DNA of 64,000 nucleotides, taken from positions 32,001 to 96,000 of the IMG/VR virus record IMGVR_UViG_2922690425_000004. One strand, 5' to 3'. This DNA is from a virus (Duplodnaviria > Caudoviricetes). Shown here piece after piece: positions 19,551 through 54,731 of the stretch (positions are counted from its first letter, which is position 1; every line of letters starts with the position of its first letter). The translations under genes were made by a program, and so were the position numbers. The notes beneath the pieces are model-generated. The model did no database searches and was not told the DNA's origin. It saw only the letters and a list, made by a program, of their open reading frames with translations.

Positions 19551-19573
19551 TATGTATGTGAAACTTTATAAAA

Positions 19574-31914: not shown

Positions 31915-32118
31915 ATGAGAAAGAATAAACCTCAGAGAAAGCCTGCTGGCGTATCACGGCTATATTGGAGCTATTTACAGGGGAACTTAGATCTTGCTGA
32001 ATTAACTCTAAAACAATTTAATCAGATTGTACTGGAGCAATACATAGAATATAAACAGCATGGTGGATATAAGTCTTTTGAAGAGTATTACGCCTATGTT
32101 CAGTCTAAAGGGTTATAA
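31915..32118 (+). CDS. Hypothetical protein
   Basis: 67 aa; its stop codon is the TAA of a TAAAA-N6-TTTTA site. Confidence 0.5.
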   Translation: MRKNKPQRKPAGVSRLYWSYLQGNLDLAELTLKQFNQIVLEQYIEYKQHGGYKSFEEYYAYVQSKGL

Positions 32119-32255
32119 AACTGATATTTTACTGAAATTTATAGGGTAATTATGTACAAATCCAATATACAAAAATAAATAAACTATTGAATATAATGAA
32201 ATGACGTGGTATAATAAACACATAAGATAAGTTAATACATAGGAGGCGGTTCACA

Positions 32256-32543
32256 ATGGAATGGGATTATGAGCGCTCTGAAAGAATTAAGGCAGCTAAA
32301 CAGGAGAGACTTGAACAAGAGAAGTGCGCGAAATATACAGAGGTCAAACTTGAGGGGACAGCAGCTATTCAAACAGGATATACTAAACTCGGTAAAAAAG
32401 TTGTATTTGAATCTTGTATGGGGTTTTCGTCTCAAAGCAAGTACGGTGCTGGCACTTTAAGTGTTTATGAAGGAGACGAAAGAAAAATAGTTTTCACAAA
32501 AGGATATCCATCTAAAGCTCTTGATTATATGATGAAACATTAA
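32256..32543 (+). CDS. Hypothetical protein
   Basis: AGGAGG RBS; own TTGAAT/TG-TATAAT promoter. Confidence 0.6.
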   Translation: MEWDYERSERIKAAKQERLEQEKCAKYTEVKLEGTAAIQTGYTKLGKKVVFESCMGFSSQSKYGAGTLSVYEGDERKIVFTKGYPSKALDYMMKH

Positions 32544-32624
32544 AAAACAATCGAGACATAGTATAGTGCAAGTAACAATGTACTGTAACGATTTAAAATA
32601 CTCATTTTATAAGGAGATGTAACT

Positions 32625-32909
32625 ATGAATAATATGTTTCAGATTGATAGAATCAATGAATTACAAGGAATCAATACAAAAGAATTAAATATGTTTAGCT
32701 TACATGAACTGTATGTTGATGGCGTTCCAATTGCTTATGTTCGTATAAATAATGAAAAGATTGAAGTTTTGCCATTTTTAAAATTTGCTGCTGAACCTTG
32801 TAAAGCATTATTCGTAAATACGGAAGAATTTGGTGAAATGATTGAGGGGTATAGGGTTATGGATTGTTTGATGTACAATAGTTCGAATTTTTCAAATAAA
32901 ACACATTAG
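32625..32909 (+). CDS. Hypothetical protein
   Basis: AAGGAG RBS. Confidence 0.55.
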   Translation: MNNMFQIDRINELQGINTKELNMFSLHELYVDGVPIAYVRINNEKIEVLPFLKFAAEPCKALFVNTEEFGEMIEGYRVMDCLMYNSSNFSNKTH

Positions 32910-32956
32910 GATAAATGAGTGAATTTATAGAGATATAGAAGAGAGGTGGAGTATGA

Positions 32957-33142
32957 ATGATATTCCAAAAAACAAAATACTACCCAGTAGATGTGCAAAG
33001 AAGGATTATATACAACGATCCAGCAAAGCGAGAAAGAGAATGTAGCGTGGAGCGTGGTTATCGCGAGAAAGGAACTATTGGTATTAAGGGTGAGAGATTA
33101 AACATGTTTGATTGCTACAAACAGTTCGAAATAACTGTATAA
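32957..33142 (+). CDS. Hypothetical protein
   Basis: GAGGTGGAG RBS; stop codon within junction motif. Confidence 0.5.
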   Translation: MIFQKTKYYPVDVQRRIIYNDPAKRERECSVERGYREKGTIGIKGERLNMFDCYKQFEITV

Positions 33143-33478
33143 AATTCTTGTTTTACTTAGAAACGAACGTATAAATATTCAACATTAAGAGTATATTACT
33201 CGAAATTAATGATAAATACATACGTATTAATGTATATTTATAAATAAATCAAAGGATAGTGTATTATATGCAGATTGTGCAGATTAATAATTACAGGCAT
33301 GTACCAGAACTAGAACGTATCTCAGGTTCATGGATTATAACCCGTATCGATGGCGGCTATGTTATTGGTGAATTTTATGATCGTTCAGTTGCTAATCGGT
33401 TTATACTGAAACTTGTCTGATTGAAACATCATTACAATACATAGTACGAATCTAAAAGAAAATTAACATCAAATCTTT

Positions 33479-33895
33479 TCATTTGATGTTAAATAGTTGT
33501 TTTATATAATTAACTAGTAATCCAGAGCCTGTGTTTGATGCAAAACTAATTAGGTGGTTAATCAACCATGCTTTTCTTCCTTTTGGTTTTTGGTTGTCCA
33601 TGATCTCTCTTAATATGCTTATTATTTCACTAAATTGGGCACTACTGAGATATTCCTTTTGAGCAATATTACCAATATTCTCAGAAATAAAATCCCAATC
33701 TCTTACTAAGACAGCTATTTTTTTACCTAGGATTATGGAATTTGTCGAAACAAAAGAACTGTCTTCACTTAATTTTAAATCTAAACCTACTTCTCCATAC
33801 ACCGTGCTTCCAATTAGTTCAATGTCATGCGTACCTTCTGCACGGATACCACATTCAGTTCCGCCAAAGGAACATCCAACAATTTTATATTTCAT
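33479..33895 (-). CDS. Hypothetical protein, paralog of 34090-34506
   Basis: 138 aa; shares DIELIG, KIAVL.RDW and GSGLL..YIKQLF blocks. Confidence 0.65.
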   Translation of the reverse strand: MKYKIVGCSFGGTECGIRAEGTHDIELIGSTVYGEVGLDLKLSEDSSFVSTNSIILGKKIAVLVRDWDFISENIGNIAQKEYLSSAQFSEIISILREIMDNQKPKGRKAWLINHLISFASNTGSGLLVNYIKQLFNIK

Positions 33896-34032
33896 GTTAA
33901 TAGTGCCCCCAATTATATATATCGATTAGTTAAGTAGTATAGGTGGTTGGGAAATTAAAGTGAAAATGAATTTTGTTATTTATATAATTTTATAACATAA
34001 CATATCTTATAGGCTGCTTTTTAAGTTACTAA

Positions 34033-34082
34033 ATATGCTTGCTTTATAACTTCTCGTTCGTGTTGTTATAAAGCAAGCATAT
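34033..34082. repeat. Perfect 18-bp inverted repeat
   Basis: ATATGCTTGCTTTATAAC-14-GTTATAAAGCAAGCATAT between the paralogs. Confidence 0.8.
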
Positions 34083-34089
34083 CTATAGA

Positions 34090-34506
34090 TTAAAATTTGG
34101 AGAAAAGCTGCTTGATATAAACAACAAGCAATCCAGAACCTATACTCGACACAAAATTAATTAACTTATCTATCAATAGCTTTTGCATTTCCTTCGATTT
34201 TTCAGTATCTTTTATTTCAATTAACCTGTTTAGCACTTCACTGTATTGTGCCTCGTTCAGTCCATCTTGCTTTGCATAACTTGCAACATCATCTACTATA
34301 GAATTCCAATCCCTAATTAGAACAGCTATTTTCCTACCTTCAATTGCGGTATCTGTAGAAATAAAGTTACTTTCTTTACTTAGGTTTAAATCTAATGCTA
34401 CATCTCCTACTACTTTAGTTCCTATAAGCTCGATATCGTTGTTGCCATTAGCGATTAACCCCTTTTGCCCACCCATTAAGTAACCACCAATAAATTTATA
34501 CGCCAT
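34090..34506 (-). CDS. Hypothetical protein, paralog of 33479-33895
   Basis: 138 aa, colinear with neighbour; GAGGAG RBS. Confidence 0.65.
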   Translation of the reverse strand: MAYKFIGGYLMGGQKGLIANGNNDIELIGTKVVGDVALDLNLSKESNFISTDTAIEGRKIAVLIRDWNSIVDDVASYAKQDGLNEAQYSEVLNRLIEIKDTEKSKEMQKLLIDKLINFVSSIGSGLLVVYIKQLFSKF

Positions 34507-34730
34507 TGGCTCAACTCCTCATTTTGCTATCATAGCAATAGTATAAAAGAGTAATGTATGTATGTAAACATTTAGAGTTGTTATGAGAATAAAACCAGTT
34601 TTTTATAGTAAGGTGTTATTAAAAAAATAAATTGCCAATCAAGGTTCTGTATATAAAATTTTAGACACGTAGACACGTAGATCTAGTATAATGAGGAAAT
34701 GATAGATCATATAACAGGGGGTTGGGGATT

Positions 34731-35318
34731 GTGAGTTTCGTTTCTATTATTGTTTGCAATGATTATTTGTCTGTTGTCGCTGATAGTCGAGCTGTCAATA
34801 CTATTAGTGGAGAAATCGACAATGAATACGAACAGAAGATTTTTGAAATCGGTGAGTATGTATTCATTGTCAATACAGGTTATATAAGCGATGCCGCACA
34901 ATTTTTATTAAACTCTAAACTAGATCAGTCGGTTGTGTTAAATGGATTATTAAAAGACGAGAAGGAGATCAGAAACTGGTTTAATACTATTAAGGATTAT
35001 ACTAAAACTGATTCTTTTTTTGAAGTAAAATTTGGTGGTCTCTCGGTTGAAAATAAATTTCAAGTGTATACAATTAGCAGCAAAGAAGACGATATTATAA
35101 AAATAAATTACACTAATTCTGGAATAGGATATTCATTTGCTAGCAGCCCACACACCCCTAACGATTTGCCTTTAAAGCTATTTGCACAACAATATCAAAA
35201 TTTAAAGGAAGATAATTTGGAATCAGTTCGTAAATTACAAGAATCTATAAACGACTATATTGCAAATAACGATCCCACTGTAAATAAAAATAAATCATAT
35301 TATTCTTTAGTTAAGTAG
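34731..35318 (+). CDS. Putative Ntn-hydrolase/proteasome-beta-like protein
   Basis: (M)SFVSII...VVADSR...QKIF pattern. Confidence 0.4.
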   Translation: MSFVSIIVCNDYLSVVADSRAVNTISGEIDNEYEQKIFEIGEYVFIVNTGYISDAAQFLLNSKLDQSVVLNGLLKDEKEIRNWFNTIKDYTKTDSFFEVKFGGLSVENKFQVYTISSKEDDIIKINYTNSGIGYSFASSPHTPNDLPLKLFAQQYQNLKEDNLESVRKLQESINDYIANNDPTVNKNKSYYSLVK

Positions 35319-35535
35319 AACATGGAACTCCATTAGTTAATCAACGTATATATGACAAAGATTTTAGATATAATAAAATGTTACTTTTACAAACTAGGTA
35401 TATGCCTAGTTTTTTGTTATACGGCTAAAAAAACTAAAATACAAATATAATTAAATATTGACAATCTAATTGTGTGGTGATAATATTATATATATAGAAA
35501 GTGATTAAAATAAATTTTAATAGCGAGGTGAACGC

Positions 35536-35712
35536 ATGACATTGAGAGAAAGAACACTTCAATTAATCAGTGATAAAGGAATTAAAAAATCCTTTATAGC
35601 TGGTAAATTGAGTATCAGTAATTCGTTATTCTCACTATTTATCAATGGGAAACAGCCTCTACAGAAACCTGAAATAATTAAACTGGAAGAGTTAATTGAA
35701 TCGTACAAATGA
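35536..35712 (+). CDS. Small Cro-like HTH protein (58 aa)
   Basis: Hand translation MTLRERTLQLISDKGIKKSFIAGKLSISNSLFSLFINGKQPL...; GAGGTG RBS; TTGACA promoter upstream. Confidence 0.65.
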   Translation: MTLRERTLQLISDKGIKKSFIAGKLSISNSLFSLFINGKQPLQKPEIIKLEELIESYK

Positions 35713-35746
35713 TGATGAATAAATACAATTAAAAGGAGAATTAAAC

Positions 35747-36802
35747 ATGGGAGCATTATTGAAATTACACGCAGAAAACTTTGTGGAAGATAGAAATGTT
35801 AGAGATCAATACATAAATAAAACTGAAGTATTACAGAAGGTAAAGTCGCTTTCACTGTTGCCAGATAATCAACATATGACAGTAAAAGCAGTTGCTGAAT
35901 ACTATGAAGTTGAATATCAAACTATTATAAATGTCCTTAATAGACACAAATCAGAGTTTGAAAAAGATGGTGTTAAAACTATAAACAATAAAGATGAGGG
36001 TTATTTCAAAGTGAAAGAAGCCTTGTCTACTGGGCAATTTATAGTTAAACTAGTACCGCGTAAAGCGATTTTAAGAATTGGAATGTTGTTAAGAGATAGT
36101 AAGGTGGCAATTAAGGTTAGAGATTATTTACTAAGAGTTGAAGAAGTGTCAACTGAGGAACAAAAGAGAAGTTTATGGTCTGATCATGATGTAATAAAAT
36201 TAAATGACATAATGAAAGATGAAATGAGTAAGGGAAATAGTAAATGGGGGGCTATCAGGAAAGCCGCTAAGGCATTCAATAAAAATCCTCACGCTGTGTA
36301 CCAGAAATATTTGTACGTAACTAAGAAACACGGATCTATGGACGAATATATAAATAAAAATAATTTGTTGTTTTTGAATAAAGAATCTGAGGAAATTCAC
36401 AATGGAGAAGTTGAAGTAATTGACCAGACACCAAAGCAAGAAGCGCAAAACTCCCCATTAGTAGGAGCCTTTCAAACAAAAATAAACAGAATATTATATA
36501 ATATGAAAAATACCAATGAACTTGAAGCAACAATAAATGAACTTAAATTAGAAGTAAAAGAATTAAAACATAATTTACAAATTAGAGATATAGAAATAGC
36601 TACATTTGATGAAAGTCTTGCTAAAAGAGATAGAATTATAAGCAAACTCAAAAAAGAAAAATTAGCTTTAGAAACTAGTGTAAAAGCAATTCGAAAAATA
36701 GTTTTAAATGGCACAAAAACAAGCAATATTGAAGAAAATAGCAAGCCTGAAGGACTTATCTATACACATGATAAGAGTGGTATAGTGGAGGTAAAAAACT
36801 AA
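35747..36802 (+). CDS. Antirepressor-like DNA-binding protein with coiled coil
   Basis: VAEYYEV...LRIGMLLRDSKVAIKVRDYLL N-terminal domain typical of phage antirepressors. Confidence 0.55.
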   Translation: MGALLKLHAENFVEDRNVRDQYINKTEVLQKVKSLSLLPDNQHMTVKAVAEYYEVEYQTIINVLNRHKSEFEKDGVKTINNKDEGYFKVKEALSTGQFIVKLVPRKAILRIGMLLRDSKVAIKVRDYLLRVEEVSTEEQKRSLWSDHDVIKLNDIMKDEMSKGNSKWGAIRKAAKAFNKNPHAVYQKYLYVTKKHGSMDEYINKNNLLFLNKESEEIHNGEVEVIDQTPKQEAQNSPLVGAFQTKINRILYNMKNTNELEATINELKLEVKELKHNLQIRDIEIATFDESLAKRDRIISKLKKEKLALETSVKAIRKIVLNGTKTSNIEENSKPEGLIYTHDKSGIVEVKN

Positions 36803-36992
36803 TAGATTAGTAACGATTAACTGGGTGTATATTACCCAGTTTTTTTCTTTGTTTAATTCCTAAATATAAAAATAATTAAATATTGTAATCAATAATTATG
36901 TGTGATATAATAAACCTAACAAAAAGAAACGGCGTATTGTAACCAGTAGCACCGTAATGTAAGGGGTAAAACAACGATTTTATAAGAAATGA

Positions 36993-37358
36993 GTGAGTAA
37001 TGTGGGAGCAAATAAGGAGAAGCAAAATATAAGATATAAAGCAGTATCCCGTAGAACTGAAAAGAAAGTTCGATTTGATGGCTTTACACCAGAAGAAATA
37101 AAAAACATAAAGTTGCAGAAGAATTATGAACGCTTTGAAAAAGAAATAAATAATTTCTGGGCAACTGCCCCAAGATGCGATAACGGATCAGTAGCTTGGG
37201 AAAGACTTAGTGAAGATGAATTAAATCTCTTTGAATATATTAATAAGCAAAAAGAAAAGTATAATAAACAAATCGTCAAGTATGAAGAACAGGGCATTGT
37301 CATAGATAAGATTATGAATATGTTTATGAAGCTTAATGTGCAGAGTGTTTCTTATTAA
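36993..37358 (+). CDS. Hypothetical protein
   Basis: 121-aa ORF bracketed by junction motifs. Confidence 0.55.
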   Translation: MSNVGANKEKQNIRYKAVSRRTEKKVRFDGFTPEEIKNIKLQKNYERFEKEINNFWATAPRCDNGSVAWERLSEDELNLFEYINKQKEKYNKQIVKYEEQGIVIDKIMNMFMKLNVQSVSY

Positions 37359-37480
37359 ATAAAAACAGGAATTTATCACATTTTCAAATGAAAGAAGGTT
37401 ATATTTTGAAAGATGAGATTCTGAATCATAGCGAAAAACAGGTTGTTCTTTATTCTAAAGGACATTTTTAAAAAACAGAT

Positions 37481-37774
37481 ATGCTTGAGGATATCAGACA
37501 AATTACAGCAAAAGCGTTTTCTATTCCAGTTGAATCAACTCACTTTTATCATCTGTATAATTATATTACATCAATCTTTTTGAAATTACATGAAGCGGAA
37601 TACATAACGGAAAGCATGGAGAACTTTTTGTGCAGTCTCTTTAAGTGGAAATCTGTTTTAAAGCCTGAAGACATGGTAACTAAAATGATTGGACAAATAT
37701 CTATAGTCAAGGCTTCAGGATTAGATCTTGGCGAGGCAGATGATGAGTATTTACCGATAAAAAGAAGAAGTTAA
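37481..37774 (+). CDS. Hypothetical protein
   Basis: 97-aa ORF. Confidence 0.45.
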   Translation: MLEDIRQITAKAFSIPVESTHFYHLYNYITSIFLKLHEAEYITESMENFLCSLFKWKSVLKPEDMVTKMIGQISIVKASGLDLGEADDEYLPIKRRS

Positions 37775-37815
37775 GTTTGAAATAAAACAGTTATTTTACA
37801 TGAAAAAATATTATT

Positions 37816-38727
37816 ATGGAGGTTGTATCAATGATGAAAAACATGAAAACTTGTGCACTATGTAAAACAACTAAGGAACTAAGAAAGAGTCATGTATTGC
37901 CAAAGTTTGTGATAAATTTTTTGAAAAAAGATTCATTTACAAACAAATTTAGAAATTTAGAAAACTCCAACATCTCCAGACAAGATGGAGAAAAAGAATA
38001 TCTCCTTTGTAATGACTGCGAACAATTGTTTAGTGTATCTGAGAATTTGTTTGCAAAGAATGTTTTTTATCCGTTTAAGAAGCAAACTTTAGTTAGTAAA
38101 CTCAAATATCAAGAATGGTTAACAAAGTTTATCGTATCAGTTAACTGGAGATGTTTATATTTAGACATTTTGAGAATAGAACAAGATCGAGAAGAACGAG
38201 GGAAAATTAGTACGTCTCAGTTAGATATTTTAAAGGACTCTGAAATGGTTATGAGTGAATTTTTATTGGGAAATAGAGTAGATCTGGGAAGTATTGAAAA
38301 CCATATTTTTTTCTTTGATGAAGTAAAGAGCATGAATGAAAATTTAACACTTCATAGACCTCACAGCTCAGTCCATGGCTCTATAGGTGGTTACACAGTT
38401 TGGAATGAGGATTCAATATGTGTATTTACAAATCTAGCAGGTGTATTTATTATAACAATTTTTAAAAAGGGTAAGAGTGAGAAATGGAAAAATACTTATG
38501 TTAAAAAAAGTTCGGGCGTCATTAGGATTCCTCAATTTATCAAGGGGACATTAATAGCCAATGAACTCACTTTTCTGAATAATAGTTTGAAGTACAATAA
38601 TTTATCAGATAAGCAACGAAATAAAATAGTGGAACACATTTCTTCCAATATCGATAAATTTAAAGCGAGTGGCTCATATAAGCGGTATGTGAAAGATAAG
38701 AATTTAAATACTACAAATGAAATTTAA
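37816..38727 (+). CDS. Zn-binding HNH-like protein
   Basis: CALC...SHVLPKF...LLCNDCEQLFS. Confidence 0.55.
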   Translation: MEVVSMMKNMKTCALCKTTKELRKSHVLPKFVINFLKKDSFTNKFRNLENSNISRQDGEKEYLLCNDCEQLFSVSENLFAKNVFYPFKKQTLVSKLKYQEWLTKFIVSVNWRCLYLDILRIEQDREERGKISTSQLDILKDSEMVMSEFLLGNRVDLGSIENHIFFFDEVKSMNENLTLHRPHSSVHGSIGGYTVWNEDSICVFTNLAGVFIITIFKKGKSEKWKNTYVKKSSGVIRIPQFIKGTLIANELTFLNNSLKYNNLSDKQRNKIVEHISSNIDKFKASGSYKRYVKDKNLNTTNEI

Positions 38728-39053
38728 ATAAAAGTTGAATTTTACTAATTAAAAATACATATCAAGGTGGATAAACAATGAATAAACATTCGAATATTAG
38801 GAAGGTTATTCCTATAAGTGTAGCGATTTATGTGATTTTATCCATAGGAATAGCGTGTACAGGTCTGAGTGCAGCTGTTAGATGCTGACTATTTTACTTG
38901 GACTAGCAGCAGTACATAGTGTACTTGTATTGAATTTGTATTTTAGCATCAGAACAACTAAGAGTGAAAAGTTTATTAAATAAGCTGCTATGACAGGGAG
39001 GGAGTAAGCAGGGTGAGATTGCCTGACATAATCATAAAAGGGGATATACATAA

Positions 39054-39884
39054 TTGGAGAATAATATTCAAGCAGTAGAACAGAAATTGGTTGAGTTTAA
39101 TGGAACTGAATTGTTGGGAATTAAGGCGAATGACGGCAAGATTTATGTAGGTGTTCGTTGGGTTTGCGATGGGATTGGGTTATCAGACGGTCAAGTGAAG
39201 GCAGAACGTAAGAAAATTAAAGATGATTTAGTGTTGAATCAAGGGGGACGAAATTTCGTCCTCCCTACAAATGGCGGTAAACAGGACGTGCTGGCACTAG
39301 ATATTGATTTTCTACCGTTGTGGCTTGCTAAAATCACCATTACCCCAAATATGCAAATGAAGCAACCAGAAGTAGCAAGTAAGTTAATTCAGTATCAATT
39401 GAAAGCAAAAGATGTTTTAGCTGAAGCATTTGTACATAATTCGGCGCGGCAATATTTGTCCTTGTCTGAAGAAGACCGTGCAATTGCTTATTTTACAGCT
39501 AAGAAAGAACAGAAACAATTGCAGTTGCAGATTGAAGAGAATAAACCGCTGGTTACATTTGCCGAAACCGTTCTTAAATCAAAGGATAATATTCTGGTGC
39601 GTGAAATGAGCAAACTCATACAGGATGAAGGAATAAATATTGGCGAAAAGAAATTATATCAGAAATTGCGTGATTGGAATCTTGTATTAACTTATAAGAA
39701 CGAGCCAACTCAGTACGCAATGAATCAGCAATTGTTTGTTGTTGAAGAAAAGAGCATAGATACAGCATATGGGGTCAAACTGGTTAAAACAATGAAAATT
39801 ACTCCAAAAGGACAAATCCGCATAGTAGAGAAGATTAAAAAAGAATATAGTAAGAGTGTTGCCGAAGTAATTCAAAATACATAG
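39054..39884 (+). CDS. Phage antirepressor (P22 Ant-N plus KilAC)
   Basis: VGVRWVCDGIGL, FLPLWLAKI, KPLVTFA, IGEKKLY, PTQYAM and KITPKGQ motifs. Confidence 0.85.
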   Translation: MENNIQAVEQKLVEFNGTELLGIKANDGKIYVGVRWVCDGIGLSDGQVKAERKKIKDDLVLNQGGRNFVLPTNGGKQDVLALDIDFLPLWLAKITITPNMQMKQPEVASKLIQYQLKAKDVLAEAFVHNSARQYLSLSEEDRAIAYFTAKKEQKQLQLQIEENKPLVTFAETVLKSKDNILVREMSKLIQDEGINIGEKKLYQKLRDWNLVLTYKNEPTQYAMNQQLFVVEEKSIDTAYGVKLVKTMKITPKGQIRIVEKIKKEYSKSVAEVIQNT

Positions 39885-40018: not shown

Positions 40019-40312
40019 GTGAACAGCATGACTTTACGTAAGTGTAAGAATGAATTTTGTTCGGGAAACATTGTATCTGATTATATAGAAGCTGAATATT
40101 GTCTTAAATGCTATATGGATATGTTGAAATTTCTTCCCTTGTTTCACATACCAGTTGGAATTATGCCATATAAATCAACGAGACAGATGAGATACAATCC
40201 AAATGCATGTAAGATGAAATTTTGTAAGAATAAAGCGAGGCTAAGAGGTAGATGTTTTAAGTGTTATATCGAGTTTATGAAAAAGCAAGAATCTGAAATG
40301 AAAAGCCAATAA
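40019..40312 (+). CDS. Cys-rich Zn-finger protein
   Basis: Two Cys clusters; stop codon within a junction-motif variant; terminator at 40327-40351. Confidence 0.5.
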   Translation: MNSMTLRKCKNEFCSGNIVSDYIEAEYCLKCYMDMLKFLPLFHIPVGIMPYKSTRQMRYNPNACKMKFCKNKARLRGRCFKCYIEFMKKQESEMKSQ

Positions 40313-40631
40313 AAGATTAATTTGACAAGATCGCTGAGGCGGTCTTTTTTTGTTAAACAATTAAATATAATGAAATACACAAAATCTATATACAAAAATA
40401 ATTAAATAATATATAATGAAGACATAGAGAGACATGAGGTGATAAGCATTTACAAGGTGACCTTGTTTGAGAAGGTGCTGGGTAAATTAGAGGCGAATAT
40501 GTATTCGTTCGATGATAAAATAGAAATGATTAAATTTACTGCATTGCGCGAAAACGAAGGTGCAATGGTTGTTATGAACATTAGTTTAAAACTAACCGTG
40601 TAACAAAACATAGAAGAAAGAGGATGAAAGA

Positions 40632-40970
40632 GTGAACATAGGAGATAAAGTATATTTAAAAGCTGTTGGAAATATGGCAAGAGGAAGAAAGGAGCCACTG
40701 ATTAAGGAGAGCGAAATTACGAGGATTGGACGTAAGTATTTTGAAGTCCAACTCGGTACCAAGCCAATCAAGTTTAATATCGAAAGTTATAGACAGGAAA
40801 ATGGTGGCTATAGTGCTGATTGGAAACTATATTTTTCCATACAGGAAATCTTAGATGAACAAGAATTTGAAAAGTTAGAAAAGGGCATCAAATCCAAATT
40901 TGATACTTTCGGCAAGTTAGATCTTACGCTTGATCAACTTAGACGAATCAATGAAATTATCAGTGAGTAG
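40632..40970 (+). CDS. Hypothetical phage protein
   Basis: IGDKVY...ITRIGRKYFEV small beta-barrel pattern. Confidence 0.6.
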   Translation: MNIGDKVYLKAVGNMARGRKEPLIKESEITRIGRKYFEVQLGTKPIKFNIESYRQENGGYSADWKLYFSIQEILDEQEFEKLEKGIKSKFDTFGKLDLTLDQLRRINEIISE

Positions 40971-41008
40971 ATAAAACTATATTTTTATAAAGACAGGGGC
41001 AAAAAAAG

Positions 41009-41300
41009 ATGTTCGAATATAACAAGGCAGCTCAATTGTTAGAAGTGTGGAAAAAACATGATTTAGATAATGGATTTTATAAGGGTGTTCCTAACTATCC
41101 TACTAACACTCGATTCGTTAGTGAACTCAATCAAAAGATCGCTCAAGAATCTGAACGAATATTACTTAATGTGCTTGAGGGAAAACAGTCACGTTATCAA
41201 TCCAAAGGAAATACTTGAAAGTGTTATATCTAATTATGTTGCAGGTACAGATTATACTGCAAAAGAAGTAATGCAAATTATGGGTTTTAGAATAAAATGA
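41009..41300 (+). pseudogene. Probably frameshifted single gene
   Basis: ORF 41009-41218 continues in the frame of 41070-41300; one unit between junction motifs 40972 and 41293. Confidence 0.4.
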
Positions 41301-41337
41301 TCCTTTTATTAAAAAAATAGAGTAGGAGAATAGGGCT

Positions 41338-41592: not shown

Positions 41593-41696
41593 TTGAGTAA
41601 GTGCAAAATGAACTGTATACCCAACTTTAATTGATTTATTGAGATTATAGATTATTTAATTAAATAATCCTTTTACAACTGGAGGGGAAATAAAGA

Positions 41697-41915: not shown

Positions 41916-41954
41916 TCCGGTGAAGTTGTCTTCTGGATAAGGAGGGGGATAAGA

Positions 41955-42173: not shown

Positions 42174-42188
42174 AGGAGTGAGAATGAA

Positions 42189-42518
42189 ATGCACAATACG
42201 GAGAAAATGATTGAATTAAAAAATACTCTCGAAGGTCTATATGAACTAAAACAGGTGTATGACGGTGAAGGGTTAGCTTATCAGTTAAGGAAGGTAAATA
42301 AAGAAATTAAAAAGAATGAAGACGAGCTTTTAGAAGAGTTATCTGTTAAGTGGAACGCTTTTAACGAAGGTGAAAGGATAGAAATATTTGTGAAAGAATT
42401 ATTTTCAAATCAGACAGCAAAAAAATATTCTGTGTTAAGATGGGAAGAATTATCTTCCAGAGTTAAAAATGTGCTATTGCATTCTGAGATACGTGGCTAC
42501 TTAAATCAGTTAAAATGA
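42189..42518 (+). CDS. Hypothetical protein
   Basis: AAGGAG RBS. Confidence 0.55.
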   Translation: MHNTEKMIELKNTLEGLYELKQVYDGEGLAYQLRKVNKEIKKNEDELLEELSVKWNAFNEGERIEIFVKELFSNQTAKKYSVLRWEELSSRVKNVLLHSEIRGYLNQLK

Positions 42519-42543
42519 ATATTTTATAAGGAGAGATCGAAAC

Positions 42544-42720
42544 ATGGAACTAATTTTCAGAGAAAAAGTAATGATCTACAATCTGTTGAGCGAAAGATAT
42601 CACGAATTAAAAAACAAACCAGAATCAAGAGATGAGAATACATTTCAAGAATTAGAGGACATGTACATTAAGTTTGGTGCTCACTTAGAAAAAGAGTACG
42701 GAAAAGATTGGTGGAAGTAG
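42544..42720 (+). CDS. Hypothetical protein (58 aa)
   Basis: Hand translation MELIFREKVMIYNLL...GKDWWK; lies exactly between motifs 42511 and 42722. Confidence 0.5.
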   Translation: MELIFREKVMIYNLLSERYHELKNKPESRDENTFQELEDMYIKFGAHLEKEYGKDWWK

Positions 42721-42745
42721 ATAAAAAGATTATTTTATTTTCATT

Positions 42746-43102: not shown

Positions 43103-43325
43103 CATAGAATAAACATTGATTAAAAGGAGTGGAAATTACAATGAGTTTCTCCAAGTGGATTGAAAAAAATTATAGTTGTTCTCATACACAATTGGTGTAC
43201 CTGTATGGAAACAAATATGTAAGAGAGCTTGAGGGAACATACGGTGAATTTTGTAAAGCGAATGGTATCAAACCAGAGATTGATTAAAAAAACATGGTAT
43301 AAGATAAAAAAAATTTCATGAGGAG

Positions 43326-43568
43326 ATGTGCTTTATGGGAAAGGATTTTTTGAGTTACGAGGAACAATTCAAAGAGGTTCTAAATATTGAAGAAATAGAT
43401 CGTATTGAAAATAGGGAACTTAGAGAAATTAGAATGAAGTACTGGCGATTACAGCGTGATGCATTCCTTGATGAAAATAATATATCAGATCAAGAATTAA
43501 ATAAAGTTTCACAAGAATTAACACGTAAAGAGATGGAAGAGATACAACGATTCAGAAACAAAAAGTGA
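43326..43568 (+). CDS. Hypothetical protein
   Basis: 80-aa ORF with GAGGAG RBS. Confidence 0.5.
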   Translation: MCFMGKDFLSYEEQFKEVLNIEEIDRIENRELREIRMKYWRLQRDAFLDENNISDQELNKVSQELTRKEMEEIQRFRNKK

Positions 43569-43601
43569 GTAAGCTTATGAAAGGATTCTTTTATAAGGGA
43601 G

Positions 43602-43820
43602 TTGGAGTTTTTAATGACTGTGAATCAAGATTTAGTTGATCAAATTGAGAGTAGTTTTTCTGATATACATTGTTCTGAACCAACTGAAGAACAGATTGAA
43701 AATATAATAAGCTTGATTCCTCAGAGAATCAAGTTACTGGCTGAAGAATGGGGCTGGAATGATACTGAAGTAAGAGACTTTATCTTTGTTTTGATAAGAG
43801 ATAGAAAAGCCGACTATTAA
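43602..43820 (+). CDS. Hypothetical protein
   Basis: 72 aa, WGWNDTEVRD. Confidence 0.5.
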   Translation: MEFLMTVNQDLVDQIESSFSDIHCSEPTEEQIENIISLIPQRIKLLAEEWGWNDTEVRDFIFVLIRDRKADY

Positions 43821-43893
43821 TTCGATGGAATTCGGCTGATTGGAATAAAAGAAGTATTTGATAACAAAAAAAGAAGCGACCAAAAGTCGCAAC

Positions 43894-44148
43894 TTAATCA
43901 AAGTATTTATTAGCAAAAATAATTGCTATACCAATCGCTAAGAAAATAAAAGCAAATGGAATAGACACAGTGTAGTCATTTAATGCTTGAACTAAATCTT
44001 TATTAAGCGAATTGCTAATCTGAGAACCCATAAATTCTCGTGTATCTGGAGTAACCCTTAGCAGATGTTTGATGAAGTATGCATAAATAGCATAAACGAA
44101 GGATAGTGCGCTTAATCCATAACCCAAATTTTTGATTTTTACTACCAT
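43894..44148 (-). CDS. Small two-TM membrane protein
   Basis: Two hydrophobic segments; inverted relative to neighbours. Confidence 0.55.
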   Translation of the reverse strand: MVVKIKNLGYGLSALSFVYAIYAYFIKHLLRVTPDTREFMGSQISNSLNKDLVQALNDYTVSIPFAFIFLAIGIAIIFANKYFD

Positions 44149-44249
44149 TCTTATTTTCCTTTCTCAATTTAAGATTAATTTAATTATACTAATCTATTTG
44201 TATGATATGCAAATACTGGAATGTAATCAAGTAAGAAGGAGCGAAGATT

Positions 44250-44645
44250 ATGAAGACTAGGGTTTTTACATGTTCTAACGGGACAGAGTTAATTGTTAAA
44301 CATCGAAAATCAGCAGTGATTTTTGAAATGAATCAAAACCAAATAAATAATAAATATAATGTTACATATAAGTTTGAACTTAAGGATTTCGTAGAGTTGT
44401 ATAACTACATTAATATGATTGCGAATGAAGCTTGGAGTAATCTATCTCCCAAGGGAGCTGACAGTTTAGGATCAGACTATTACGAATATTATGACAAAGA
44501 ACTTGACACTAATGGCTATCTTCGTATTCGAAAAAACACAATTAGTATAGATAGACCAGCATTAAATGGGCAGAAACTTTATCAATTCAATAAGAAAAAA
44601 ATGGAGTCATTTATTTATGACTTTGAAAAGCTTGTTAAGAGTTAG
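44250..44645 (+). CDS. Hypothetical protein
   Basis: AAGGAG RBS, 131 aa. Confidence 0.6.
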   Translation: MKTRVFTCSNGTELIVKHRKSAVIFEMNQNQINNKYNVTYKFELKDFVELYNYINMIANEAWSNLSPKGADSLGSDYYEYYDKELDTNGYLRIRKNTISIDRPALNGQKLYQFNKKKMESFIYDFEKLVKS

Positions 44646-44891
44646 TGTCATCAGCAATAGGGAAATGTTACAGATAAAATAAGTCTTTTAATAACAATAA
44701 TGCACATAACAACGGAGGAATAAATATGTTTACAGTAACCAATACAGAAACGAAGAAATACCTTAGAGCAGATTGGGAAGCTGAGCGCGGTCAACTATAT
44801 ACGCATGACGTTGATCTAGCTGTCAAGTTTGAAAGTTGGCATGATGCTGAAGATATTACTGAAGCAACAGAACAAGTAGTACCTCTGTCTA

Positions 44892-45101
44892 ATGATTAAA
44901 AATATAATAAAAGGAGAATTTGAGATGGATACATACATGATAGTTGTAGATGGAAAAGTAAAAGAAGAAATCGAAACCGCTGGACGTTCCAAGGAAGCAA
45001 TGAGTTTTGTGTTGATTGATCGTTTCTATCACTGGAGTGGTTTTTCTGCTAATGTGAACATCTATAGTTCTTTAACGGGGAGTGAGTATCATTATGTTTA
45101 A
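44892..45101 (+). CDS. Hypothetical protein
   Basis: Probable start MDTY after AAGGAG. Confidence 0.5.
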   Translation: MIKNIIKGEFEMDTYMIVVDGKVKEEIETAGRSKEAMSFVLIDRFYHWSGFSANVNIYSSLTGSEYHYV

Positions 45102-45383
45102 AGCTGGGGCATTAAAAAACAATAAGCTGTGTGTTAGAAATAATCAGGGCAAGTGGATTGAATTACATGAAGCAGCGAAACAATATGAACAACATAGAAT
45201 ATTGAAACATACATAATAAAGATAACGGTAATGTGGTCTTTTTAATAAACAAAAATAATTAATATATTGAGTATAGCGTCGTAATATGTTATGATTTATT
45301 TATCGATAGGCAAACATTGTAAAGAAACTAGTAAAATAGTATTGTAGAATAAGAGAATTCAAAAGAAAAGGGAAGTGTGAAAT

Positions 45384-45638
45384 GTGGAAAATGAATGGAA
45401 ATACTTAAGCGAACCTACTAAAACGATTCTGGAACGAATTGATATAAATCGTAAGAGCGCGGAAGTGCCAATTGGACATACGATTAGTATCCCCCATTTT
45501 AATGGAGTTTTAACTAAGGAAATTGCAAAAGAAATTATTGAATATCAACATTCTAAAGAAAATGAAGGATATTTTTCAGCTTCACTTGAAGATGATCTGT
45601 TAAAGATCAACTTTATAAAACAAGCATTAAATTTTTAA
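45384..45638 (+). CDS. Hypothetical protein
   Basis: 84 aa; motif at 45640 follows the stop. Confidence 0.5.
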   Translation: MENEWKYLSEPTKTILERIDINRKSAEVPIGHTISIPHFNGVLTKEIAKEIIEYQHSKENEGYFSASLEDDLLKINFIKQALNF

Positions 45639-45680
45639 TTAAAAGGTTTATTTTATTCATAAAATGAAGGGAGTAACAAT

Positions 45681-45920
45681 ATGAATGCACAGGATAAGGT
45701 TCTGGAGGGGTTTGCTAGAATGTCAATGGCATCTTATGACGCAAAAGAAGCCATTGAAAAACTCGAAAAGGCTCAAGATCACTACAAGGATATGAAGGTT
45801 GAAGAATGCGTTCAAAATATATTAAGCTTACTAAAAGAAAATAAAAAACTAACAGAAAGAGATATGATACTATTAATTGGAACTTTAGCAACTGACATTA
45901 AAGAGATTTACGTGAAATAA
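45681..45920 (+). CDS. Hypothetical protein
   Basis: GGGAG RBS. Confidence 0.5.
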   Translation: MNAQDKVLEGFARMSMASYDAKEAIEKLEKAQDHYKDMKVEECVQNILSLLKENKKLTERDMILLIGTLATDIKEIYVK

Positions 45921-45943
45921 CTATTTGATAGGAAGTGTGAACC

Positions 45944-46150
45944 ATGAAAAAATCAGTATTATGTTCTATCATTATCGTTTTTCACAAGTTAATTAACATT
46001 GAATTTGTAAAAGAGGGCGATGATTTATGGGCAATTGAATATAATTATAAAATTTTTTCGATGCCAGATAAAATTATAGCAAAATGGAAGGTTAAACAAG
46101 GTTCTTTTGTTTATCGCAAATTAATGCAAACACAGGCTCATGTAAAATGA
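45944..46150 (+). CDS. Hypothetical protein
   Basis: 68 aa between motifs 45913 and 46143. Confidence 0.45.
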   Translation: MKKSVLCSIIIVFHKLINIEFVKEGDDLWAIEYNYKIFSMPDKIIAKWKVKQGSFVYRKLMQTQAHVK

Positions 46151-46191
46151 CTGTTTTACCTTGAAAATATTTTAAGGAAAGAGGTACTCAT

Positions 46192-46557
46192 ATGTCTGAA
46201 GCACCTTACGGATATCATATTTTAAATGGAGAAATGGTTGCACATCCATTTGAATCGAAAGTTGTTAGATTAACCTATGGACTGTCACAGATTGGACTCG
46301 AATCTAGTGATATTCAGTATCTGTTGGAAGAGTTTAAAGTTCCAAAACGTGGTGAAGATTATAACTACGATATCGACGGGAATTTACATGAAATATACGT
46401 TGCTGGAGCCAAGCTTCTTATTGATTTAATTCAAGAAAAAATCGATAATGAAATAGTTTATTTGCCCGTTGATAAAGAAAAGACACATCCAATCGTATTA
46501 GTTACTAGTTTAGCACATATTTTTAATAGATTTAGAGATTCGGATGAAACTCTGTGA
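46192..46557 (+). CDS. Hypothetical protein (recombinase DNA-binding-like N-terminus)
   Basis: APYGY...ESKVVR resembles the large serine recombinase DBD start. Confidence 0.45.
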   Translation: MSEAPYGYHILNGEMVAHPFESKVVRLTYGLSQIGLESSDIQYLLEEFKVPKRGEDYNYDIDGNLHEIYVAGAKLLIDLIQEKIDNEIVYLPVDKEKTHPIVLVTSLAHIFNRFRDSDETL

Positions 46558-46588
46558 ACTGGCTGTTTTAAAGGAGACGAGTAACTCT

Positions 46589-46927
46589 GTGGATATAAAT
46601 AAAATACAACTAGGGCACACCTACCAAATTAATAATGTTAGCAAGAACAACGGAAGAAAATGCATTGTTCTTGAGACTGTAGATAACAACAAAGCAAAAA
46701 TTAAATTTGTGGACAATAGAAGAATCGGAAAAGTGTCATTATATAATCTGGAAGAAGTACCTAAAGTAATGACAAGAGAAGAAAAAGTTACTCAAATGCA
46801 GCACAAGAAACTCGAAATAAATATGCTAATTGCAGAAGAGTATGAAAAAATCAAACTAATTGAAAAACGAATCGAGGAATATAGAATCGAACTCTTGCGT
46901 TGTGAAAATGAATTAACTAAGTTATAG
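46589..46927 (+). CDS. Hypothetical protein
   Basis: GTG start after AAGGAG inside track ORF 46544. Confidence 0.5.
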   Translation: MDINKIQLGHTYQINNVSKNNGRKCIVLETVDNNKAKIKFVDNRRIGKVSLYNLEEVPKVMTREEKVTQMQHKKLEINMLIAEEYEKIKLIEKRIEEYRIELLRCENELTKL

Positions 46928-46984
46928 TCGTCATCCCAACACATGTTCGGTAAAAGATGTGTTTCACAGGGAAGGAGCATAGCT

Positions 46985-47350
46985 GTGACTGATAAGATTG
47001 ACCTGTATGTTGACGATCTTAGAGACTGTCCAGATGGCTTTGTGGTGGCTCGTACATACTATGAAGCAATACATATCCTTGAAACCAAAAGTGTCGGCAT
47101 TCTTACGTTAGACCATGATTTGGGAGAGGACGTAGATGGTAAAGAACTGCCTAACGGATATGACTTGGTGAAGTACTTCTGTGAACATGGATTGAGGGCT
47201 GATAAGATATATTTACATACAGACAACCCTGTGGGACGCAAGAACATGCATGAAACGTTGTTAGCTGCTCAGCGGAGAGGTTTTATCGATGAGGATATTG
47301 AGATATATCATTATCCTATAACGGTGAACAAGTATTCTGGTAGCTGGTAA
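46985..47350 (+). CDS. Cyclic-phosphate-processing receiver-like protein
   Basis: LYVDDLR, LDHDLGE and HTDNPVG motifs. Confidence 0.7.
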   Translation: MTDKIDLYVDDLRDCPDGFVVARTYYEAIHILETKSVGILTLDHDLGEDVDGKELPNGYDLVKYFCEHGLRADKIYLHTDNPVGRKNMHETLLAAQRRGFIDEDIEIYHYPITVNKYSGSW

Positions 47351-47388
47351 AAGGCATGTTTCATAATGGAGAGGAGACCCAGAATAAA

Positions 47389-48543
47389 ATGAAATTAAAG
47401 GTTCAGTTCACAAACGAGCTACCATTTATGATTCAACTTCCAAATGGAGATTATTCAGTAAGAACGAGACTAAACCCAACAGAAGAGAAAGATTTTATCC
47501 TAAAATTAAGTGATGATGTTTTCAGAGTACATATTAATCCTTTTGGTAGCAAAAAGTCTGCCATGTGTATCGAAGGTGAGAGAGCGGAATTGGAAAGTTA
47601 CATAATCAATAATCGTATTCCAAATTATGCTTTCGAACCTTGTAAAAGTTATATTAGTTGTACAATTGAGGAGGAACTAGAATTAAAAGATGAACTGTAT
47701 TTAAATGTCACGAACGACGACTTGATTGATAAAATTAAATCAAAAATGATAAGAGAAGGAATTAAATATACTGATACCATTGATTTAACTAGAATGGCGA
47801 CAACAGAATTTGGCACCTACAATACAGATCAGGTTTTAGAAGAAAAAATAGATTACGTTGTTAATAGGAGATTGAATGAACTTAGCAGATTAGTTTATCC
47901 CTATCATAATGCTTTAAATCAATTCATAAAACAATATTCTTATCTGCGAAATGATTTTTTTGTCGAAACTACAACTATGCATACTCTTAAGGGGACGACA
48001 TCGAGACAGTTTGTCGATGGTTATTATTATGATTCTATTAAGCATGCTGGAAAAGCACCTAGCATGATGCCATATCAAAAATGGTTACCAGAGATCGATA
48101 GTAATCATGTTGAAACATTAAAAGAAAGACTTATAAATGGTTTCGATATTCCACCTACTAAAGATTTGATTATAATGGCTCGCAATCTTGCTGAAAGAGG
48201 AGAGTACCGTTCAGCAATCATTAATAGTTCCGCAGCTCTTGAGGTTGCTGTAGAACAAAAAATCATTGAGAAAATGTATTTGAATGGAAACACGCAAGCG
48301 GAAATTGATACTTTCTTAGACAGCACAAAGACTAATTTTTATAGGAGATGCGACAGACAATTGAATGAGAAGGCAGGGCAATCACTGGTACGAAACAATC
48401 CTACTCTTTGGACAAACATTAATTCCCACAGGAATAGATACCGTCATAAGATTGCTCATTCTTCGCTCATGCCCAATGCGAGGGATACCGAGAAAGTAAT
48501 TAACGATTTTGAGATAGCCGTAAACTGGGTAGAAGCTTTATAA
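47389..48543 (+). CDS. HEPN-domain protein (putative RNase, defence)
   Basis: SAIINSSAALEVAVE helix and RHKIAH (R-x4-H) motif. Confidence 0.55.
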   Translation: MKLKVQFTNELPFMIQLPNGDYSVRTRLNPTEEKDFILKLSDDVFRVHINPFGSKKSAMCIEGERAELESYIINNRIPNYAFEPCKSYISCTIEEELELKDELYLNVTNDDLIDKIKSKMIREGIKYTDTIDLTRMATTEFGTYNTDQVLEEKIDYVVNRRLNELSRLVYPYHNALNQFIKQYSYLRNDFFVETTTMHTLKGTTSRQFVDGYYYDSIKHAGKAPSMMPYQKWLPEIDSNHVETLKERLINGFDIPPTKDLIIMARNLAERGEYRSAIINSSAALEVAVEQKIIEKMYLNGNTQAEIDTFLDSTKTNFYRRCDRQLNEKAGQSLVRNNPTLWTNINSHRNRYRHKIAHSSLMPNARDTEKVINDFEIAVNWVEAL

Positions 48544-48597
48544 AATGCAAGTTTGATTAGTCCAATATTAATGCGAATAGTAAAGGAGTATTAATTC

Positions 48598-48873
48598 ATG
48601 AAGGCTATGGCAATCGTAAGATCGTCTATCGAATGGAGCATAGACGAACAGCAAAATAAAATAAATCAGTATGCAATATCAGAAGGTATCAATCTTGTTC
48701 ACATTGTTGTAGTAGCGAGTGATGTAGATTTAGAATTAGCTACCAATAATCTATCAGAAGTTGACGCTGTTATTGTGACCGACGTAACCCGAATTAGTAG
48801 AAACAAAGAAACCTTAGACATGTTCAAAGAACAACTTAGACATAATGATACGCAATTGGTGATACTCTCTTGA
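48598..48873 (+). CDS. Truncated resolvase-type serine recombinase catalytic domain
   Basis: AIVRSS, EQQ and VIVTDVTRISR motifs; only 91 aa. Confidence 0.6.
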   Translation: MKAMAIVRSSIEWSIDEQQNKINQYAISEGINLVHIVVVASDVDLELATNNLSEVDAVIVTDVTRISRNKETLDMFKEQLRHNDTQLVILS

Positions 48874-48907
48874 TCTTTATATCTTAAGCGGAAGGGAGAA
48901 AAATGGG

Positions 48908-49186
48908 TTGGTATCAAATAGACTAATAGATAACTTAAAATCTAAACAAAATAAATGGAGCTATAACCAACGCATATGGGTAAGAGGTGCGAGTATTGGA
49001 TGGATAAAAGGTTATTGTGATGTTAAGGACAAATATGTAGTAGAAAGAATGGTAAATGGAAAATTAGTAGTAAGATTGTATATGTCTGAAAATATTTTAG
49101 AGTATGAGCCTTGGGACGAAGAGAAAAAGAAGCAACATAAGAAGCATGTAGAATGTATAAAAAGACAAAAGTTTATAGAAGATTAA
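48908..49186 (+). CDS. Hypothetical protein
   Basis: 92-aa ORF, GGGAG RBS. Confidence 0.45.
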   Translation: MVSNRLIDNLKSKQNKWSYNQRIWVRGASIGWIKGYCDVKDKYVVERMVNGKLVVRLYMSENILEYEPWDEEKKKQHKKHVECIKRQKFIED

Positions 49187-49549
49187 TTTAGATATTTATG
49201 GATGGCAGTTGAAATGTAGTTTTAATTAAAAAGATAGGTGAAATGCAGAATGTATTGTGAGAAGTGTGGTAAGAAACTAGAGGATGTGTTGGAACACGTT
49301 AAGCACATCCTCCATGAGTGCAATGGATAAAATACATACAAGTAAGGGGAAGCAGCAATAGTGGACGAGAAGGCAAGAGAAGCACTTAGGAAGGCTGTAT
49401 ATCTAATTGGTATTGGGGAAGGGTTGAAGGCAAGCGAATTGCTGATTGATCTCTGCTGAATCAACCTCTGAACGATGCAGCTAAATAACCGCACCACAAA
49501 GTTTGTTTTATAGTGAGTAAAATATAATTTTTATTAAAAAGCCTGCCAA

Positions 49550-54714: not shown

Positions 54715-54731
54715 CAAGAGGTGTCTTATTA

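Follow-up and report, generated by a model that had tools for sequence, protein, structure and literature searches.

Since the modular theory of 1978 it has been unclear how phages, in the absence of homology, come to exchange unrelated genes exactly at gene boundaries. The question is raised again by a stretch of 64,000 nucleotides (nt) from a Caudoviricetes genome (IMG/VR record IMGVR_UViG_2922690425_000004, positions 32,001 to 96,000), which we call the window and whose own numbering is used throughout. The window is part of the record of a large SPbeta-like phage, 160,162 base pairs (bp) long, and between its small early genes there recurs a 16-base dyad, TAAAA-N6-TTTTA, in which two inverted arms enclose a six-base centre, or spacer. 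A first-pass annotation of the window took the copies between 32116 and 49533 for a local 17.5-kilobase (kb) array of integron-like cassettes, captured or shuffled by a phage recombinase. We compared the window's phage with two mosaic relatives from IMG/VR, G001 (218 kb, a provirus) and G002 (171 kb), and with phages related to SPbeta. The centre of each site proved to be specific to its position, and on balance we consider it probable, from comparison of these genomes, that the TAAAA-N6-TTTTA sites, which are scattered throughout the phage genome, serve as recombination joints at which a crossover would need matching centres.

The enrichment of the motif is specific to one spacer length. The window holds 19 exact copies with an N6 spacer, against 1.21 expected from dinucleotide shuffles (largest shuffle 5), while each other spacer from N0 to N14 gives 0–3 copies, so the enrichment survives correction for composition. 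All 16 exact copies reported in the first pass are present, as are the 11 near-copies with the same 6-nt spacer, which have one or two mismatches in the arms. That list of exact copies was incomplete, since those at 19569 and 30780 had been missed, and of its outliers 17316 and 62165 were correct (one arm mismatch each) while the one placed at 58323 lies 10 nt further on, at 58333. The exact copies beyond the 32116–49533 range are therefore three: 19569, 30780 and 58333. One arm mismatch is found in the near-copies at 37360, 40310, 41660, 43578, 43846, 46951, 47348, 48541, 17316 and 62165, and two in those at 32912, 45913 and 46555.

The sites are intergenic in a genome of which only about 14% is intergenic DNA. 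By our own reading of the site table the leading TAA is the stop codon of the upstream gene in about 12 of the 56 copies in the genome, in agreement with the earlier remark that the first triplet is often a stop, and in about nine further copies the motif lies 0–1 nt past that stop. The start codon of the next gene usually follows 9–36 nt after the motif. The arms are 5 bp long and consist entirely of A-T pairs, and the dyad extends weakly into the flanks (R at −1 and Y at +16, with a further weak signal at +21). Sigma-70-like promoters are not associated with the sites (82 promoter-like matches versus 89 in shuffles), terminators follow them only sometimes, and the sites themselves are not stem-loops.

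The motif extends well beyond the range in which it was first noticed. The whole phage record contains 56 exact N6 copies and at most 4 with any other spacer, mostly between about 60 and 150 kb, on the rightward arm of early genes, so that the sites span about 90 kb. Because the density is the same up to about 150 kb of the phage genome, the 17.5-kb range is a sample of a genome-wide, and indeed family-wide, feature rather than a separate array. The two relatives contain 61 and 54 exact copies, with none in the 40–50 kb at the far end of the G001 record, a region taken as host flank. Phage SPbeta has 34 exact N6 copies versus 0–3 for other spacers, and both SPbeta and phi3T of Bacillus subtilis carry the same motif. 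N6-specific enrichment was found in about 45 of 54 IMG/VR loci around relatives of the recombinase YopP (SPbeta-like contigs), where whole-record counts of 22, 68 and 10 compare with 1, 16 and 1 for a reversed control. Paenibacillaceae prophages with closer YopP relatives have no TAAAA sites within 10 kb, but their early arms carry TAAAA and/or TGAAA-N6-TTTCA, which points to a variant arm rather than an absence; the Paenibacillus prophages G009 and G008 contain TGAAA-N6-TTTCA 11 and 9 times versus about 0.2 for other spacers, and in G009 it occurs alongside TAAAA, so that arm position 2 differs between lineages. Loci with homologues of a 303-aa (amino acid) protein are not SPbeta-like and have no motif. 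Searches of the phage collection by megablast and blastn gave no DNA relatives of the window's phage. No description of the TAAAA motif was found in reviews or by full-text literature search, and it appears to be unpublished.

The spacers had been described as differing in sequence and constant in length. The constant length stands, and their sequence is not arbitrary, being specific to position, conserved in order and unique within a genome. Pairs of genomes have 82, 67 and 72 identical centres in common, in the same order, where composition predicts about 5. Between the window's phage and G002 there are 30 same-centre pairs without detectable similarity in either 150-nt flank, and 30 of 30 are collinear. 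About 20 sites of the 32116–49533 range have same-centre partners in both relatives, again in the same order, and what lies in the slots between shared addresses varies, from contents that are 100% identical to unrelated genes that differ in length; 12 of the slots with a shared address at each end had no match even by tblastx. To compare centres with coding DNA, junctions were anchored on an orthologous flanking gene and binned by its DNA identity. With a flanking orthologue 70–80% identical the centre was identical at 6 of 6 bases in 9 of 13 cases (1.9 expected), and with one less than 70% identical in 6 of 22 (1.6 expected). Centres are thus kept more often than the adjacent coding DNA predicts.

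Within a genome the centres avoid one another. Direct and inverted repeats of a centre number 9 where 25.8 are expected (P=0.0004), and the window's own phage has none (7.8 expected). The suggestion that a symmetric site would allow genes to invert finds no backing, as palindromic centres make up 0 of 117 distinct centres, and one pair of the inverted genes named with it has no homologue in G001 or G002. These are tandem paralogous genes of 138 aa on the minus strand (33479–33895 and 34090–34506), about 50% identical, inverted relative to the early arm and without a family match. Homologous genes have the same flanking centres in 87 cases versus 13, and no cassette was found in two different slots. 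Homologous genes thus remain within one and the same pair of spacers, so that the free capture or shuffling of cassettes supposed in the first pass is not supported. Between the window's clade and the SPbeta clade shared addresses are at chance (3 versus 3.3), and address sets are therefore clade-specific.

The sites of the window are listed below, where a partner is a site with the same centre and both relatives are G001 and G002.

32116..32131, exact, centre CTGATA; TAA is the upstream stop; same centre in order in both relatives; left flank homologous
32594..32609, exact, centre TACTCA; same centre in both relatives; left end of a 98.6% block common to G002
32912..32927, two mismatches, TAAAT-GAGTGA-ATTTA; the 98.6% G002 block stops at the right arm (32927)
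33140..33155, exact, centre TTCTTG; TAA is the upstream stop; G002 homology begins at 33136; partners in both relatives
34590..34605, exact, centre CCAGTT; intergenic, between divergent genes; same-centre partner in neither relative
35374..35389, exact, centre TGTTAC; terminator-like hairpin directly after; partners in both relatives; both flanks unrelated in G002
36967..36982, exact, centre CAACGA; partners in both relatives
37360..37375, one mismatch; no partner in G001 or G002
37783..37798, exact, centre CAGTTA; partners in both relatives with arm TGAAA; both flanks unrelated in G002
38729..38744, exact, centre GTTGAA; partner in G001 only
40310..40325, one mismatch, TAAAA-GATTAA-TTTGA; TAA is the upstream stop; terminator next; homology to both relatives begins exactly here
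40972..40987, exact, centre CTATAT; a G001 block ends (40993) and a 98.5% G002 block begins (40968)
41293..41308, exact, centre TGATCC; the 98.5% G002 block ends at 41308
41660..41675, one mismatch; no partner in G001 or G002
42511..42526, exact, centre TGAATA; partners in both relatives; slot to 42722 unrelated in both
42722..42737, exact, centre AGATTA; G001 homology begins at 42712; partners in both relatives
43578..43593, one mismatch, TGAAA-GGATTC-TTTTA; partners in both relatives with unrelated flanks
43846..43861, one mismatch, TAAAA-GAAGTA-TTTGA; 96% blocks common to G001 and G002 begin at 43845
44675..44690, exact, centre TAAGTC; partners in both relatives
45640..45655, exact, centre GGTTTA; a 98.6% G001 block begins exactly at 45640; both flanks unrelated in G002
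45913..45928, two mismatches, TGAAA-TAACTA-TTTGA; the G001 block ends here (45933)
46143..46158, exact, centre TGACTG; a G001 block begins at 46141; partners in both relatives
46555..46570, two mismatches, TGAAC-TGGCTG-TTTTA; the G001 block ends at 46557
46951..46966, one mismatch, TAAAA-GATGTG-TTTCA; a 98% G001 block begins at 46950
47348..47363, one mismatch, TAAAA-GGCATG-TTTCA; TAA is the upstream stop; partners in both relatives
48541..48556, one mismatch, TAAAA-TGCAAG-TTTGA; TAA is the upstream stop; partners in both relatives
49518..49533, exact, centre TATAAT; two-way terminator after; partners in both relatives
17316, one mismatch; outside the 32116–49533 range
19569..19584, exact; outside the 32116–49533 range; same centre in both relatives
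30780..30795, exact; inside a 1019-aa open reading frame (ORF); kept in G002 with both flanks
58333..58348, exact; same centre in both relatives
62165..62180, one mismatch; a G002 block ends at 62183 and the next begins at 62187

The slots between these sites have had quite different fates. The slot from 36967 to 37783 measures 800, 1128 and 1868 nt in the three genomes, with no DNA or protein similarity, the slot from 40972 to 41293 matches G002 at 99% identity but not G001, to which it is unrelated, and for the slot from 46951 to 47348 it is G001 that matches (100% identity) and G002 that is unrelated. The 1019-aa ORF (28819–31878), within whose coding sequence the motif at 30780 lies, has a C-terminal methyltransferase-like domain (PF05175, borderline score).

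Alignment of the genomes supports the reading that the sites mark gene gain, loss or replacement among related phages. For the window's phage and its relatives, 138 of 728 block ends fall within 6 nt of a site, where a gene-boundary null gives 66 (largest 97 in 5000 trials), and breakpoints in aligned relatives are in this sense tied to the motif, as had been proposed. The places where they fall differ from what was first envisaged, as block starts pile up from −5 to +2 of the motif's first base (an edge that is partly forced, because a stop codon often abuts the site) and block ends from +13 to +22, that is at the outer edges of the motif, with almost none inside the spacer. Starts of this kind in the window are at 33136, 40309/10, 40968, 42712, 43845, 45640, 46141 and 46950, and ends at 32927, 40993, 41308 and 46557. 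In nucleotide views the site-bounded blocks, at 96–99% identity, adjoin unrelated DNA or DNA of 76–79% identity, and the block 40968–41308 consists of a site, a gene and a site that are 98.5% identical to G002 with unrelated DNA on either side. Blocks take in the whole of the next site even where the downstream genes differ, so that a site belongs to both of its neighbours.

The same was seen in a comparison of five mosaic phages of the SPbeta clade (SPbeta, phi3T, Goe11, SPbetaL4 and SPbetaL2). Of 186 clustered block ends here, 53 are no more than 10 nt from a site, where randomly chosen gene boundaries give 14 and randomly chosen intergenic bases 20 (at most 33 in any of 2000 trials), and nucleotide views show homology beginning or stopping at the arms. 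One version of a site links different gene pairs in different phages, for example at the Gad1 slot of SPbetaL4. Gad1, an annotated anti-defence gene, follows yoqX in SPbetaL4 (13931–14818) and in SPbetaL2 (16409–17302); the SPbetaL4 slot opens with a TAAAA site, and in SPbeta the same slot holds yoqY. The cassette idea was thus half right: the sites do appear to be exchange joints, yet their contents are restricted to slots and addressed, which is not integron-like.

What kind of protein could work at such sites? The same two arms at every site imply that one protein dimer recognises them all, and common arms, conserved position-specific centres and the avoidance of repeats are together what recombination would need if it paired its partners across a short core. 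Tyrosine recombinases work on inverted arms that enclose a 6-bp core, and the sites have that geometry, with inverted arms around a 6-base overlap only, in an element that encodes a tyrosine recombinase with a predicted intact catalytic set. The phage encodes three proteins with the tyrosine-recombinase fold, and these are listed here with a further DNA-binding candidate.

23121..24170, plus strand, YopP-like tyrosine recombinase, putative enzyme at the sites; PF00589 E 1.7e-11, with a XerA alignment
1..946, minus strand, YomM-like tyrosine recombinase, second candidate enzyme; C-terminal end cut by the start of the window; PF00589 E 3.9e-10
54732..55721, plus strand, MrpR/YopR-like master repressor, listed to exclude it as the binder; PF22822 MrpR_N_CB E 2.8e-24
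53692..54714, plus strand, YopQ-like protein of the DndB/ParB superfamily, candidate binder if the sites serve for docking; PF14072 E 9.2e-8

The YopP-like gene, named in the first pass as a possible recombinase, lies about 8 kb upstream of the 32116–49533 range, and its product is predicted to be catalytically intact. R167, K195, H259-x-x-R262, H280 and Y289 are all present and are conserved in relatives, with R in 54/54, K in 54/54, H in 55/55, R or K in 55/55, H in 55/55 and Y in 48/55 across an alignment of 54 relatives; the aligned Tyr is missing from 7, all of them distant relatives whose contigs do not carry the motif. The YomM-like protein shows the signature R, K, H-x-x-K, H, Y in alignment. 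The literature assigns no function to YopP, and integration of SPbeta uses the serine recombinase SprA. An attempt to choose between YopP and YomM by presence and absence failed, because two or more integrase-family ORFs are present in each motif-positive record that was checked. More tentatively than for the joints themselves, we infer that the enzyme acting at the sites would be the conserved YopP-like recombinase or the YomM-like one.

The third protein of this fold has, in SPbeta, a different target. SPBRE is the dispersed operator of the SPbeta repressor MrpR, a 15-bp motif, and peaks of MrpR in chromatin affinity purification with sequencing (ChAP-seq) lie only at SPBRE; MrpR is catalytically dead and acts as a repressor (PMC10516654). 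Upstream of aimR, yosX and other SPbeta genes SPBRE reads AAATACAAAWAATATGTAT, and in our own reading the SPbeta copies upstream of aimR, yosX, yonX, yorZ, yopV and yopM form a dyad ATACA-N7-TGTAT. An identity of the TAAAA site with SPBRE was considered and rejected, as SPBRE is a different motif. Its short arms are laid out as in the TAAAA sites, a hint that in this family inverted arms of 5 bp are what paralogous proteins of the recombinase fold read. SPbeta YopQ has been described as ParB_N_Srx-like (PMC8612738). The YopQ-like and MrpR-like genes (53692–55721) are about 30 kb from the YopP-like gene, and in SPbeta yopP, yopQ and yopR form one operon.

If the sites are indeed recombination joints, the centre would act like the overlap region of a tyrosine-recombinase core site, with strand exchange productive only between matching centres. 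Co-infecting phages, or a phage and a resident prophage, could then cross over in register at equivalent junctions whose neighbours have no homology, and whatever two addresses enclose, in most cases one small gene of the early or accessory kind, would be swapped with gene order undisturbed. Distinct centres within one genome would prevent deletions and inversions.

Several points weigh against this. Binding, cleavage and recombination at the sites are all proposed from comparison, and the strongly conserved arm, at only 5–6 bp, is short as a binding element for a recombinase. Of the BLAST block ends no more than about a fifth to a quarter fall at sites, some events have only one end at a site, and the three relatives are not independent lineages, so that the counts overstate the number of events. 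On the side of the enzyme, the second catalytic Arg is replaced by Lys in YopP of SPbeta and in both YomM proteins, and each record with the motif that was checked encodes another integrase-family ORF. As YopP belongs to the core genes of the family, its co-occurrence with the motif is confounded by phylogeny. Selection for recombination in the future is also a second-order effect, and some more immediate advantage may be required to keep the centres conserved.

An alternative that we think unlikely but of some weight is that the sites are docking sites with another main job. A dimeric phage DNA-binding protein, either the YopQ-like protein or one of the helix-turn-helix kind, would organise or regulate the early region, and the exchange edges would be secondary, produced by short-homology recombination (through a Sak4-type annealing protein) at the only sequence that the partners share and then by selection for intact genes. 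A 5-6-5 dyad is classical operator geometry, and as helix-turn-helix operators such as that of phage 434 share it, the geometry alone does not diagnose a recombinase site, which is how the first-pass annotation had read it. The family already has a dispersed operator in SPBRE, bound by MrpR, the YopQ-like protein is present in both clades, and the position of some SPbeta sites, with a terminator before them and a promoter after, is in keeping with a role on DNA. Hybrids of phi3Ts x SPbeta made in the laboratory, moreover, arose by ordinary homologous recombination, with every crossover of the sequenced hybrids (MT366946-8) in a long near-identical stretch, which makes them uninformative on the sites. 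Docking, however, gives no reason for position-specific centres conserved beyond the adjacent coding DNA, for ordered centres between unrelated neighbours or for the avoidance of repeats in either orientation, and the sites have no association with sigma-70-like promoters, while the ChAP-seq peaks of MrpR are restricted to its own operator. If the sites only dock a protein, position-specific and non-repeating centres still need explaining.

The remaining alternatives account for less. Integron-like capture, in which a phage recombinase would excise single-gene circles with one site each and insert them at any site with free reordering, would explain why site-gene-site layouts are common, why there are site-bounded insertions such as the extra Goe11 gene between yoqX and yoqY or the Gad1 slot in SPbetaL4, and why a few SPbeta-clade junctions resemble joints of sites with different centres. 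We nevertheless consider it quite improbable, because homologous genes keep their flanking centres, centre order is collinear among relatives, centres are unique within a genome and no cassette occupies two slots; the integron analogy also falters in that there is no attI/Pc platform and no attC-like folded structure, and that block ends lie at the outer edges of the motif. The conservation and uniqueness of the addresses would be explained as well as by recombination between matching centres if a dimeric endonuclease cut at both spacer edges, leaving unique 6-nt overhangs, and fragments of co-infecting genomes were religated in order by a phage ligase, and SPbeta-like phages are annotated as encoding DNA ligase and HNH endonucleases. 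But there is no candidate enzyme with a link to the sites, a phage that cut its own genome at more than 50 places would pay a high cost, and conserved tyrosine recombinases with intact catalytic residues offer a simpler route, so we give this very little credence. Just as improbable is a signal at the level of RNA, whether a processing site or a translation enhancer in polycistronic early transcripts: although the site sits between a stop codon and the next ribosome-binding site at most junctions, a UAAAA/UUUUA stem would, given the energies of A-U pairs, be too weak to fold, some SPbeta sites come after terminators and before promoters, and the centres are conserved whatever the neighbouring genes, where an expression signal predicts otherwise.

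The genes found in the slots are mostly small and without a Pfam or PHROG function. Among the exceptions are an antirepressor with P22_AR_N and KilAC domains, like SPbeta YoqD (39054–39884), a Myb-like DNA-binding protein on the minus strand (49550–50071) and a small protein with a cREC_REC (cyclic-phosphate processing receiver) domain (46943–47350; PF20274 E 3e-29). The cREC_REC gene is followed by one for a 395-aa protein of unknown function (47356–48543). Both are in addressed slots, are 100% identical in G001 and have unrelated DNA in their place in G002, and it is possible that they are counter-defence genes.

Taken further, and put forward tentatively as a proposal drawn from genome comparison, SPbeta-like phages would carry a natural genome-wide set of 50–120 heterospecific sites, in which one recombinase reads the arms and the 6-bp centres are addresses. 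Unrelated genes, anti-defence genes included, would be exchanged slot by slot without flanking homology, and the address set of each clade would delimit an exchange community. If centres are addresses, this would explain how anti-defence and accessory genes are swapped quickly with gene order kept, it would define which phages can exchange genes, and it would provide ready-made orthogonal recombination sites for engineering. The sites would then be a concrete answer to the question posed at the outset, and one that is testable in a model system, as SPbeta and phi3T infect B. subtilis.

How do the sites compare with known systems? SPBRE is the one from the same phage family, and it is likewise dispersed, intergenic and a short-arm dyad whose binder has the tyrosine-recombinase fold, but it differs in sequence and spacer length and has about 10 copies, at promoters, all with the same centre. 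The stoperators of cluster A mycobacteriophages are asymmetric fixed-sequence sites of 13–14 bp, oriented with transcription and bound by the immunity repressor, whereas the TAAAA site is a dyad with a variable centre and the SPbeta repressor binds SPBRE only. In the integron, attC sites are folded single-strand substrates of 57–141 bp, and cassettes enter at one attI, adjacent to intI and Pc, in free order. Single promoterless genes between recombination sites, some of which overlap stop codons, and a tyrosine recombinase as the enzyme make it similar to the TAAAA sites; the attC fold, insertion at an attI beside intI and Pc and free order have no counterpart here. The pdif modules of Acinetobacter plasmids, in which XerC/XerD sites reportedly flank resistance modules, are also bounded by short dyads with a 6-bp centre and found in different contexts. 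Their arms, however, are 11 bp and match dif, the recombinase is the host Xer system and the modules move between plasmids and positions, where the phage sites have TAAAA arms, position-specific centres and slot-restricted genes.

Similar in behaviour to what we propose is heterospecific cassette exchange with lox or FRT sites, in which Cre or FLP acts on identical inverted arms around a short core, only matching cores recombine and a segment that lies between two different cores is swapped in register with its orientation fixed. Such site pairs are engineered, with arms of 13 bp and cores of 8 bp, while the TAAAA sites, which have candidate enzymes, are natural and number more than 50 per genome, with strong arms of 5–6 bp and 6-bp cores. 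In the early regions of T4-type phages the PeSL (promoter-early stem-loop) cassettes are said to consist of a promoter and a stem-loop, all alike, which act through homology. They too recur between the genes of a variable early region in large phages and mark swaps of unrelated ORFs, but the TAAAA site is a 16-bp dyad without promoter association or stem-loop and has a unique centre at each position. Finally, the modular theory of Susskind and Botstein (1978) reportedly places short conserved stretches (linkers or, in lambdoid phages, boundary sequences) between functional modules, where they would serve in-register recombination of otherwise unrelated phages, an idea that has had little sequence support. 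If the sites are addressed as we suggest, they would be the physical form of these long-postulated linkers of modular phage evolution, with the same proposed role but explicit, strictly structured and countable.

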